Shown here piece by piece: positions 42,731 through 45,297 of a stretch of 64,000 bases of DNA (its first letter is position 1; every line of letters starts with the position of its first letter). The notes beneath the pieces were generated by a model, which saw only the letters and a program-made list of their open reading frames with translations, was not told the origin of the DNA and searched no databases. Origin of the DNA: Sphingobacteriia bacterium (GTDB taxonomy: Bacteria > Bacteroidota > Bacteroidia > Bacteroidales > UBA7960); contig JAABSE010000007.1 of the NCBI GenBank assembly GCA_011390575.1, positions 2,684-66,683 on the forward strand. The letters are read 5' to 3'. Position numbers and translations under genes: made by a program.

Positions 42731-43534
42731 ATGACTGATCCGAGATTGAATGCTTTTGCAGACCTACTTACTATTATGGACGAACTCAGGGCCAAATGCC
42801 CCTGGGATAAAAAACAAACCCTTGAAAGTTTGCGGCATCTGACCATTGAAGAAACTTACGAACTTGGAGATGCTATACTCGACAACGACCTTCAGGAGAT
42901 TAAAAATGAACTGGGCGACTTGCTGCTGCATATCGTGTTTTATGCCAAAATAGGAGAAGAGAAAAAAGCTTTTGATATCAAGGATGTGATAGAGGGAATC
43001 AATAAGAAGCTTATCAATCGTCATCCGCATATATACGGAGATGTAAAGGTGGCCGACGATGAAGAGGTTAAGGAAAACTGGGAGAAAATAAAAATGAAGG
43101 AAGGTCGCAAGAAGGTATTGGCCGGGGTACCCCGTTCTTTGCCTGCCATGGTAAAAGCGTATCGAATTCAGGATAAGGTAAGGGGTGTGGGCTTTGACTG
43201 GGAAAAACCTCACCAGGTATGGGATAAGGTGCAGGAAGAACTCAATGAACTGAAACATGAGGTTGAAAACAACGGCTCGGCCACCAGGGTGGAGGAGGAG
43301 TTTGGAGATTTGCTCTTCGCCCTTATCAATTATGCCCGTTTCATTGATGTAAATCCGGAAAGTGCCCTGGAGCGCACCAACAAAAAGTTTGTCAGGCGGT
43401 TTGAATATCTTGAACAAAAAACGCAGGCGGCCAATAAGGATATGCACAGAATGTCGCTTGACGAAATGGATGTCTTCTGGAATGAAGCCAAACAAATGGA
43501 AACAAACTCCGAACTGATCAAAAAGAAAGAGTAG
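42731..43534 (+). CDS. mazG: Nucleoside triphosphate pyrophosphohydrolase MazG
   Basis: 267 aa with tandem MazG domains. The motifs are CPWDKKQT, EETYELGDA, ELGDLLLH, EELNELK and EFGDLLFAL. Confidence 0.9.
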   Translation: MTDPRLNAFADLLTIMDELRAKCPWDKKQTLESLRHLTIEETYELGDAILDNDLQEIKNELGDLLLHIVFYAKIGEEKKAFDIKDVIEGINKKLINRHPHIYGDVKVADDEEVKENWEKIKMKEGRKKVLAGVPRSLPAMVKAYRIQDKVRGVGFDWEKPHQVWDKVQEELNELKHEVENNGSATRVEEEFGDLLFALINYARFIDVNPESALERTNKKFVRRFEYLEQKTQAANKDMHRMSLDEMDVFWNEAKQMETNSELIKKKE

Positions 43535-43560
43535 CACGAGAATTATTTTTTCATCATGCT

Positions 43561-43952
43561 ATCTATTGCCGTCGTGCTTAGCCGACGGTTTAAAGCAGGC
43601 AGTAAAAAAAAGCGCTGTGCAAAAGCCATGAGAAGTGAACGGCATTTGAGGACAGCGCAATTACAACTTTAGGTTGATAGCCCTGAAAAGAAATATCTAT
43701 TGCCGTCGTGCCTTAGCCGACGGTTTAAAGCAGGCAGTAAAAAATGCGCTGTGAAAAAGCCATGAGAGATGAAGGGCATTTTATGAAGGCGCAATTATAA
43801 CTTTAGGTTGATGGCCCTGGAAAAAGAAATATCTATTGCCGTCGTGCTTTAGCCGACGGTTTAAAGCAGGTAGTAAAAAAATGCGCTGTGAAGAAGCCAT
43901 GAGAATTGAACGGCATTTGAGGACAGCGCAATTACCACTCTGGGTTGATAGC
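43561..43952 (-). repeat. Three tandem direct repeats of ~122-136 bp. On the minus strand each carries a terminator-like hairpin plus T-run and a second short hairpin.
   Basis: The units span 43561-43694, 43695-43830 and 43831-~43952, at roughly 90% identity by eye. The long hairpins are at 43612-43658, 43746-43792 and 43883-43929, each followed on the minus strand by a run of 6-8 T. The short hairpin CCGTCG-N8/9-CGACGG sits at the start of each unit. Confidence 0.9.
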
Positions 43953-43971
43953 AAATGGGACTTTTATTTAC

Positions 43972-45297
43972 TTACTTCACTATTTGTCCGGTAAAAAGAG
44001 GCGTATTAAATTTATTTTCTTTCAGGATAAAAATGAAAGGTCTGTCGGCAACAAAACGTTTGGGCTGAAAATCTGGCGGATCGACAGGCATGGAAGTGGT
44101 AACCACGATAACCGCAGTGGCGGCCGCTGCTTCCGAACCCTTTTCGTCAATCTCAAAAAATACCTTCTGCAAAACAGCGCTGATGTGTAAATCTCGTTCT
44201 CCGCTAATGCCCGAAAAATCCGCTCTGTCATCAAAAGCTTCTTCAATACCTGCTTCCCGCAGGGGGTCGGTGAGCGAAAAAGATGATTCCAGTTTAAAGG
44301 AAGGTATCTCCATTTCTACATCTTCCTGCCTGAATTCTCTGATTATCGTATTGTAGGTGGCAGCATCCGGAATATACCGGGTAATATCGGTTACGTTTCG
44401 GTCGTTGGGTTTGATAAGAATAAGAGATAAATCGGGGGTAGTGTAGGGGAGCTCCATGGCAGTAAAGCCCTCTCCTTCGTACCATGGAATGCCACTTTGG
44501 CGCTGCATCATAAAATCCCTGGGGATTTCTTCTCCGGCAAGGGTTCTGAATCTTTTTTCGCGGGTCATCTCCTTTTCGAAGGGGTGTTTCCAGTCTGATT
44601 TTATATAAATGGCATTTACCAGTACCAGACGTGTAAGGTCTGACAAGGAACCAGAAGGAATCAGATCCTGTATCCGGTTGCGGGTGAGATCTTCTACCCA
44701 TGAATTGATCCTCTCTTCTGCCATGCGGGGATTGTTGCGGAAGTCTGTTTTCTCGAAGGCTCCGCCATGCCATTGCTCCACATCGTTTTTATACTGCTGA
44801 AGCACAGCATAGGATTGTTCGAGAAACACCCTGTTGGCCAGGTTAAAATCCACCAGGGTATCCTTGCTTATCTCCATAAGTTCTGAAAAGTAGTTGTGAT
44901 AAGCAGGATGAAAATCCGAATGCCGGGGGTCAAAACCGAATACATTGCTCAATTGTCTTTGGGTTTCTTCTCTGGCGCCGGAATACACGATAGCCATGGC
45001 CATATTCAAAGATGCCGGCGAAAAGGCGATATTCTCAGAAGCATTGTTGCCACTGAGCTCCCTGAAAAATTCCAGGGAAAAACTATTCATATTGTGCAAC
45101 ATATCGTTCGTTTGCTGGGGTTCCGTAGTCAAGTTTTCCTGGGTTGATTCATCTCCTTCATAAGGGTTGCTTATAAAAAGGCCATCGCCACCTCCTATAG
45201 GTTCAGCGACAGTTGCGGTTTCTGTGGTTTTTGTTGACCTGCATGCGGTAAGGCCTGCAATCAGAATTAACAAGGCGTAATATATCTTTCTGCACAT
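43972..45297 (-). CDS. Serpin-family protease inhibitor, lipoprotein
   Basis: 441 aa with lipobox GLTAC. The inhibitory-type hinge is EKGSEAAAATAV, and the serpin C-terminal signature is FVADRPFIFILKENKFNTPLFTGQIVK. Confidence 0.85.
   Translation of the reverse strand: MCRKIYYALLILIAGLTACRSTKTTETATVAEPIGGGDGLFISNPYEGDESTQENLTTEPQQTNDMLHNMNSFSLEFFRELSGNNASENIAFSPASLNMAMAIVYSGAREETQRQLSNVFGFDPRHSDFHPAYHNYFSELMEISKDTLVDFNLANRVFLEQSYAVLQQYKNDVEQWHGGAFEKTDFRNNPRMAEERINSWVEDLTRNRIQDLIPSGSLSDLTRLVLVNAIYIKSDWKHPFEKEMTREKRFRTLAGEEIPRDFMMQRQSGIPWYEGEGFTAMELPYTTPDLSLILIKPNDRNVTDITRYIPDAATYNTIIREFRQEDVEMEIPSFKLESSFSLTDPLREAGIEEAFDDRADFSGISGERDLHISAVLQKVFFEIDEKGSEAAAATAVIVVTTSMPVDPPDFQPKRFVADRPFIFILKENKFNTPLFTGQIVK

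Follow-up and report, generated by a model that had tools for sequence, protein, structure and literature searches.

A tandem repeat array beside a serpin gene in an uncultured Bacteroidales and its probable origin from a REP-type element

In the genome of an uncultured sediment Bacteroidales, a mazG-family gene and a serpin gene converge on three head-to-tail copies of a structured repeat. The question that this locus raises is whether such an array does something for the genes beside it or is simply a repeat that has landed there. An earlier note on the 64,000-nucleotide stretch of DNA that contains it (the window) offered three alternatives: the units could be small-RNA genes in tandem or sRNAs derived from a 3'-UTR, a duplicated terminator module, or a genome-wide REP/MITE-like element that is clustered at this site. 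We consider it likely that a single copy of a non-autonomous REP-type element of ~122 nt, here called module B, was inserted at this locus and then amplified three-fold in tandem on the spot.

The array between the mazG and serpin genes

Tandem Repeats Finder returned the array as its sole call (43560-43952; period 134, 2.9 copies, 88% matches, score 632), and the three aligned units have a mean column identity of 92%, which agrees with the earlier estimate of three tandem units of ~135 bp and ~90% identity. The units follow one another head-to-tail at periods of 134 and 136 nt and, because neither period is a multiple of three, they have no reading frame in common, so that the short ORFs inside them are indeed not conserved between copies. 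Both genes converge on the array across a spacer of 437 nt (43535-43971) and, if a 10-nt remnant common to the dispersed copies is included, the repeat (43560-43962) takes up 403 of these bases (92%), almost the whole intergenic region, as had been described. A CRISPR array, which the earlier note had also dismissed, was ruled out, as the units abut without unique spacers. The features of the locus are as follows.

42731..43534, plus strand: mazG-family gene, converging on the array (Pfam MazG, 3e-33)
43560..43962, no strand assigned: whole array, three copies of module B head-to-tail, module B being a piece of a dispersed mosaic repeat (Tandem Repeats Finder, alignment with dispersed copies, genome BLAST)
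43560..43693, plus strand: unit 1, REP-first as written
43560..43588, plus strand: REP of unit 1, head TATCTATTG and hairpin CCGTCG/tgcttagc/CGACGG (strict pattern, stem alleles)
43604..43658, minus strand: accessory hairpin of unit 1, GCGCTGTCC...GCACAGCGC (43612-43658), with T8 (43604-43611), terminator-like for the serpin gene (fold)
43694..43829, plus strand: unit 2, outer stem of the large hairpin degraded (fold z = -1.1)
43694..43723, plus strand: REP of unit 2 (strict pattern, stem alleles)
43740..43792, minus strand: accessory hairpin of unit 2, degenerate, with T-run (fold)
43830..43962, plus strand: unit 3, serpin-adjacent, complete module minus the array-specific junction
43830..43859, plus strand: REP of unit 3 (strict pattern, stem alleles)
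43876..43929, minus strand: accessory hairpin of unit 3 with T7, the first reached by serpin transcripts (fold; unit -37.1 kcal/mol, z = -4.0)
43953-43962: module A remnant, last 10 nt of the array (alignment with dispersed copies)
43972..45297, minus strand: serpin gene, stop codon 9 nt from the repeat end (Pfam Serpin, 3e-98)

Read on the serpin strand, every unit contains an interrupted hairpin, GCGCTGT...ACAGCGC, followed by eight, six or seven T (units 1, 2 and 3, respectively) and, downstream of this T-run, a second hairpin, CCGTCG-N8/9-CGACGG. These are the long imperfect hairpin with 6-8 T and the short perfect hairpin of the earlier note. When folded against shuffled controls, unit 1 (z = -2.9) and unit 3 (z = -4.0) do better than the shuffles, and unit 2, whose outer stem is partly lost as was noticed before, folds no better than they do (z = -1.1). 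Unit 3 had been taken to be truncated, a view that does not survive comparison with the family consensus, against which it is a complete module of ~122 nt, minus only a junction segment of 12-14 nt that is peculiar to the array. A consensus terminator scan called none of the accessory hairpins, and that of unit 1 escapes such a simple scan because its stem is interrupted and its loop is long. For the large hairpin RNAalifold gave a covariation term of +0.2 and thus no covariation support; its outer stem is invariant, and therefore the covariation test says nothing either way. Disruptions of this outer stem are tolerated in unit 2 and in the dispersed copies at C4 and C113.

If the units were tandem sRNA genes, or sRNAs derived from the 3'-UTR, with GUAAUUGCGCUGUCCUCAAAU as their common seed, then the invariance of this 21-nt block and the conservation of the 3' arm UCUGCACAGCGC, both of which go beyond what pairing alone demands, would have a ready explanation, as would the terminator-like hairpin that ends each unit. 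However, there is no Rfam match at E<=1-10, the covariation term is that given above, and the Bacteroidota-type promoter motif TAnnTTTG was not seen, by eye, upstream of the units. Moreover, copies elsewhere in the genome lie in either orientation to their neighbour genes, and the family is confined to 4 of the 22 genomes of one genus, so that we regard an sRNA array, the first alternative of the earlier note, as very unlikely. In the individual Rfam searches, the window from 43000 to 44500 gave nothing below E = 3, the transposase locus and two of the composites described below gave nothing relevant, and the family Acido-Lenti-1 did not match; the unit thus stays unmatched to a known RNA family, as in the earlier note.

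On the minus strand at the unit 2/3 boundary (window 43794-43823) there is a sigma-70-like match, TTTCCA-18-TATAAT (10/12), which is probably meaningless in a Bacteroidota genome; the count of such matches is no higher than in shuffles.

A dispersed family with a REP-type palindrome, and its insertion

The earlier note had proposed a BLAST of one unit against the complete genome. With an array unit as query, the metagenome-assembled genome (MAG) from which the window comes (G000; 4.1 Mb, 198 contigs, ~90% complete) yields 18 copies (E<1e-17) at 15 loci on 14 contigs, and the repeat is therefore dispersed. Full copies of module B were found in 3 of the 21 other species of the genus (4 of 22 genomes with G000) and in none of the 20 further genera that were sampled. 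The copies are 77-93% identical and no two are the same, and because of this there is no sign of recent activity.

Alignment of the copies together with their flanks shows that module B (~122 nt) is one piece of a mosaic, in which at several loci a module A of ~125 nt precedes it and a module C of ~115 nt follows it. Module A begins with ATTGCCGTCAGTTTTAACTGACGG, and the end of module B is its inverted relative, CCGTCG...CGACGGCAAT. A+B composites have an inverted REP at each end, with arms ~190 nt apart and no simple long hairpin. Full A+B+C composites of 360 nt occur only three times (C138, C140 and C170), with inverted 11-nt ends TGA(A/T)TATCCGC...GCGGATA(A/T)TCA at each. These matching ends could point to a MITE of a DDE-type IS, with terminal inverted repeats TGAWTATCCGC, moved by cut-and-paste and carrying module B as cargo. 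Such an origin appears extremely unlikely to us, since the three composites show no consistent target-site duplications, module B alone or A+B is far commoner than the full composite, and no transposase gene was seen between ends of this kind. Beside the composite at C140 (10230-10330) there are further small hairpins, aaccactatcgtggtt, aagcctgaaaggctt and ccgcgggttttaacccgtgg, which are missing at the orthologous, empty site of G015 and could be members of still other repeat families.

The part of the unit that connects it to a wider family is the second short hairpin, which, together with the adjacent TATCTATTG, is a REP-type palindrome. Written REP-first on the plus strand, a unit consists of the REP, a spacer of ~22 nt, the larger accessory hairpin and a linker. 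At ~57 sites genome-wide the conserved head (T)TATC(T/C)ATTG precedes a hairpin with the foot CCGT...ACGG, and the strict pattern TATCYATTGCCGT-N12-24-ACGG has at least 53 matches in G000 and none in the reversed control. At least five alleles of the REP stem exist, in all of which pairing is kept:

CCGTCAGT/ACTGACGG: 29 copies, the commonest, contains CGTC
CCGTTGGC/GCCAACGG: 12 copies
CCGTCG/CGACGG: 10 copies, the array's own allele
CCGTTCCG/CGGAACGG: 5 copies
CCGTTGGA/TCCAACGG: 2 copies

The B-type hairpin and the CCGTTGGC allele are one compensated pair and a one-base bulge apart. At C136 (21926-22210) module B is present as two sister copies (tree support 0.998) whose REP alleles differ, CCGTCG in one and CCGTTCCG in the other, which suggests that the palindrome is exchangeable as a cassette and was swapped after duplication.

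Synteny of mazG and the serpin gene holds throughout the genus, and in the three closest species (G007, G012 and G015; MazG 87-89% identical) the spacer is ~70 nt long and has no repeat. In G007 and G012 it contains a hairpin of its own, (a)gaagatg...catcttttt. Since the closest relatives thus have an empty spacer with its own terminator hairpin, the array is a lineage-specific insertion. At a second locus, that of the A+B+C composite at C140, the orthologous site is likewise empty in G015 and G007. In neither of these filled/empty comparisons could the target site and the ends of the element be placed, the spacers being too diverged, and a 9-nt sequence, GCAATCAAC, that is present both where module B starts and in the G012 empty site lies on opposite strands in the two and was treated as chance. 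In G000 the ancestral spacer hairpin has been largely deleted (window 43535-43559), and the inserted repeats now provide the only hairpins of the spacer.

As to how one insertion became three units, a tree built from the non-REP part of 27 module copies places the window units in one clade (support 0.87), and they have array-specific states in common, with CCTGCTTT where other copies have CCTTCTTT; from this clade and these states it follows that the three derive from one founder that was amplified locally. Arrays of this kind recur in the genome, in which 6 of the 33 long-period arrays bear this REP, and one of them (C109:63649-63990; period 133, 2.6 copies) is also head-to-tail and has a different unit in the same layout.

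In a crude gene call from ORFs, every one of the 15 module B loci is intergenic, seven between convergent and eight between tandem genes, with none between divergent genes. At no more than 9-10 of these loci is the hairpin with its T-run turned towards a gene's 3' end, and therefore module B has no strong strand preference. The earlier note had named a common dispersed repeat with neither strand nor context bias as the finding that would tell against it; the strand half of this describes the family and the context half does not, as every copy is intergenic and none is placed between divergent genes. These loci also bear on the possibility that the units form a module, mobile or duplicated, that serves as terminator and mRNA stabiliser and is kept for the transcript of the upstream gene, with the REP a mere vehicle or irrelevant. 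Such a module would fit with the hairpin and T6-T8 run that each of the three units has on the serpin strand, with the lack of copies between divergent genes, with the degraded state in G000 of the ancestral hairpin that G007 and G012 retain, and with the finding that REPs of E. coli serve as partial terminators and stabilisers (bioRxiv 10.64898/2026.03.23.713779). However, gene 3' ends are faced at no more than 9-10 of 15 loci, the outer stem never covaries and is disrupted with impunity in unit 2, C4 and C113, the consensus scan calls no terminator, and one terminator would be enough, three in a row being unneeded. We therefore consider this reading unlikely. Of the duplicated terminator in the earlier note, the hairpin and T-run stand, and the dedicated role gives way to what is at most a side effect. 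More generally, a dedicated sRNA or terminator role is unsupported because there is no Rfam match, no covariation of the large hairpin and no strong strand bias.

Of the original alternatives it is the third, a REP/MITE-like element found genome-wide and clustered locally, that has held up, given the 18 copies, the empty sites in sister species and the presence of the same REP in the flanks of a Y1 transposase gene, described below.

A Y1 transposase gene between inverted copies of the palindrome

Four genes in G000 match Pfam Y1_Tnp (PF01797). One of these, a single-copy gene encoding 145 amino acids (G000:C109:95755-96189), is bracketed by inverted REPs, one on the plus strand at 95628 and one on the minus strand at 96263, with a small hairpin, GGGGCT(T/A)(T/A)AGCCCC, on the inner side of each. 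The array's REP and the two REPs that bracket this gene are thus members of one family, with at least 53 palindromes in the genome, and the arrangement at the gene is REPtron-like. All three REPs of the array are in direct orientation, and it is at the transposase locus that an alternating layout is seen. Gene-less elements of 155 nt with the same two ends, that is, inverted REPs, surround the gene, which lies within ~1.7 kb of nested REP-bearing elements of 155 and 252 nt (C109:94950-96700).

The HUH motif of the C109 protein, DHIH, and its catalytic tyrosine motif, YIHSQEEKH, align with those of ISDra2 TnpA (PDB 2XM3), and a WQ motif is also present. At the sequence level the HUH-Y1 gene is catalytically intact. 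With NCBIfam models the protein scores 55.7 bits for transpos_IS200 (cut-off 55), at the edge of the IS200/IS605 transposases, and 39.3 bits for REP_Tyr_transpos (cut-off 80). It does not match PDB 4ER8, and its tyrosine motif lacks the NP. Judged from its sequence, the enzyme is not a classical RAYT. It fits instead, by motifs and size, TnpA_Y1 subclass 1.2 (Quentin, Siguier, Chandler and Fichant, 2018, PMC6006769), the members of which have ~148 amino acids, the motifs DH[IV]H, WQ and Y---Q--HH and a low copy number, occur in Bacteroidetes and Cyanobacteria, and are listed without REP-like sequences or IS ends (PMC6006769).

Orthologues of the C109 protein with 60-88% identity were found in G009, of the same genus, and in G041, G060, G061 and G063, of four other genera in the same family. 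In G009, G060, G061 and G063 the layout is kept, with a REP and small GC hairpin before the gene and the inverted pair after it; the G041 orthologue (61% identity; Y motif YIKNQEEHH) has flanks that look different. Across the orthologues the palindrome changes along with the protein, for example through a compensatory change in G009 from CCGTCAGT/ACTGACGG to CCGGCAGT/ACTGCCGG. Synteny of the Y1 locus is not conserved between G000 and G009 and, given this, the cassette itself may move like an IS. REPs are also present in genomes in which a close Y1 orthologue was not found, namely G012 (98% complete; 19 REPs, 8 of B-type), G007 (7 REPs), G001, G082, G021 and G015. Co-occurrence of enzyme and REP across 66 genomes is thus imperfect, and it is confounded by MAG incompleteness; because the gene sits in badly assembling repeats, its absence from REP-bearing MAGs is not proven.

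The three further Y1_Tnp genes of G000 lie outside the window at C159:19891-20253, C148:9455-9850 and C48:561-800, and on either side of each lie arrays of a distinct palindrome of its own, an example from around the C159 gene being gccgcattagcggcgacattatggtaga. Two of the three proteins have the Y---Q--HH motif of subclass 1.2, and the paralogue motifs are YILRQEEHH and YIENQQEHH. The C159 and C148 repeats are local; those of the C48 type, 17 copies on 13 contigs, are dispersed.

If the C109 enzyme behaves like the analogous IS200/IS605 TnpA and E. coli TnpA-REP, it would bind the REP hairpin in single-stranded DNA and cut and rejoin the strand beside the conserved head, and modules with a REP would in this way be moved or copied into intergenic DNA. 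Cutting and rejoining at a hairpin and its head in single-stranded DNA is known from the TnpA proteins of IS608 and ISDra2 and from E. coli TnpA-REP (PMC3479197; PMC6006769). Once module B had been inserted between mazG and the serpin gene, the tandem array could have arisen by slippage, by unequal exchange or by repeated action of the enzyme at the resident REP. It is conceivable, though unlikely, that the recurrent head-to-tail arrays with periods of ~133-134 nt are direct products of repeated HUH nick-and-rejoin and not of slippage. Because the ancestral terminator of the spacer has decayed, the accessory hairpin and its U-tract now probably end or stabilise the serpin mRNA, a predicted role that would be a side effect. 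In a further reading, module B would be an exapted 'mobile 3'-end cassette', spread by the transposase, which has replaced the mazG/serpin terminator and gives rise to serpin 3'-UTR RNAs of ~80-130 nt with the 21-nt block as seed. We think this decidedly unlikely; if it were true, transposition would have seeded the genome with related 3'-UTR RNAs that make up a small regulon.

Known systems and meaning

The closest parallel to this arrangement is the REP/BIME system of E. coli with its REPtron, which contains the TnpA-REP/RAYT gene YafM (Nunvar 2010, PMC2817692; Ton-Hoang 2012; Messing 2012, PMC3479197). As there, the palindromes are extragenic, present in tens of copies and in several alleles, have an unpaired head 5' of the stem, form clusters and head-to-tail modules, and lie downstream of genes, and a single-copy PF01797 HUH-Y1 gene sits between inverted copies. 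In contrast, the head is GT[AG]G in E. coli and TATCTATTG here, and class 2 RAYTs have a Y...NP motif whereas the C109 enzyme has the IS200-like Y...Q. Furthermore, the unit is longer here (122-134 nt), includes a second hairpin and has a modest copy number, and where BIMEs have alternating REPs at regular spacing our array has three direct REPs. The A+B composites and the 155-nt elements at C109 resemble REPINs (Bertels and Rainey 2011, PMC3116915), in which two inverted REPs fold into one long hairpin that moves as a unit, in being non-autonomous and in having two inverted REPs, although each array unit has a single REP, repeated in direct orientation, and the arms of the A+B composites are ~190 nt apart.

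With IS200/IS605 elements and their gene-less PATEs the system has in common the lack of target-site duplications, and ISDra2 TnpA (PDB 2XM3) is the closest solved structure to the C109 protein. However, IS200/IS605 elements have distinct left and right ends, whereas here there are inverted copies of one palindrome, a single-copy gene and no tnpB. The CGTC-tagged REPs (Di Nocera 2013, PMC3733652), which occur in Bacteroidetes and have a stem of 8-9 bp, a loop of 4-5 nt, a CCA tail and no known dedicated transposase, resemble our family in their host phylum and in that the commonest allele here contains CGTC. We rejected membership of this superfamily, as the CGTC is here paired in the stem, a CCA tail is missing and the repeats flank a transposase gene.

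As regards the enzyme, the agreement with subclass 1.2 of Quentin et al. (2018, PMC6006769) extends to a size of ~145 amino acids, the HUH motif DH[IV]H, the WQ motif, YIxxQxx[KRH]H, low copy number and a Bacteroidota host. It differs from the published description in that the C109 gene, four of its five orthologues (G009, G060, G061 and G063) and two G000 paralogues sit between hairpin repeats of their own; in the literature we found no published description of a subclass 1.2 gene paired with dispersed hairpin repeats. The system would work like REP/BIME/REPIN with RAYT, yet it fails the GT[AG]G head and the class 2 enzyme, and it is best filed as a Bacteroidales variant in which the enzyme is IS200-like and of subclass 1.2 and the REP modules are long and have two hairpins.

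For the locus itself the outcome removes a false lead, as the tandem repeats downstream of the serpin gene are not an array of sRNA genes. The array is an ordinary by-product of a REP-type system, an ordinary bacterial "junk" repeat. What it leads to is a documented case of an IS200-like subclass 1.2 Y1 gene in a REPtron-like arrangement with dispersed repeats, in an uncultured sediment Bacteroidales. To our knowledge, systems of the REP/RAYT type have been worked out almost wholly in Proteobacteria. Finally, the comparison of empty with filled sites shows REP-type elements remodelling gene 3' ends, in this case at a site whose ancestral terminator has decayed.
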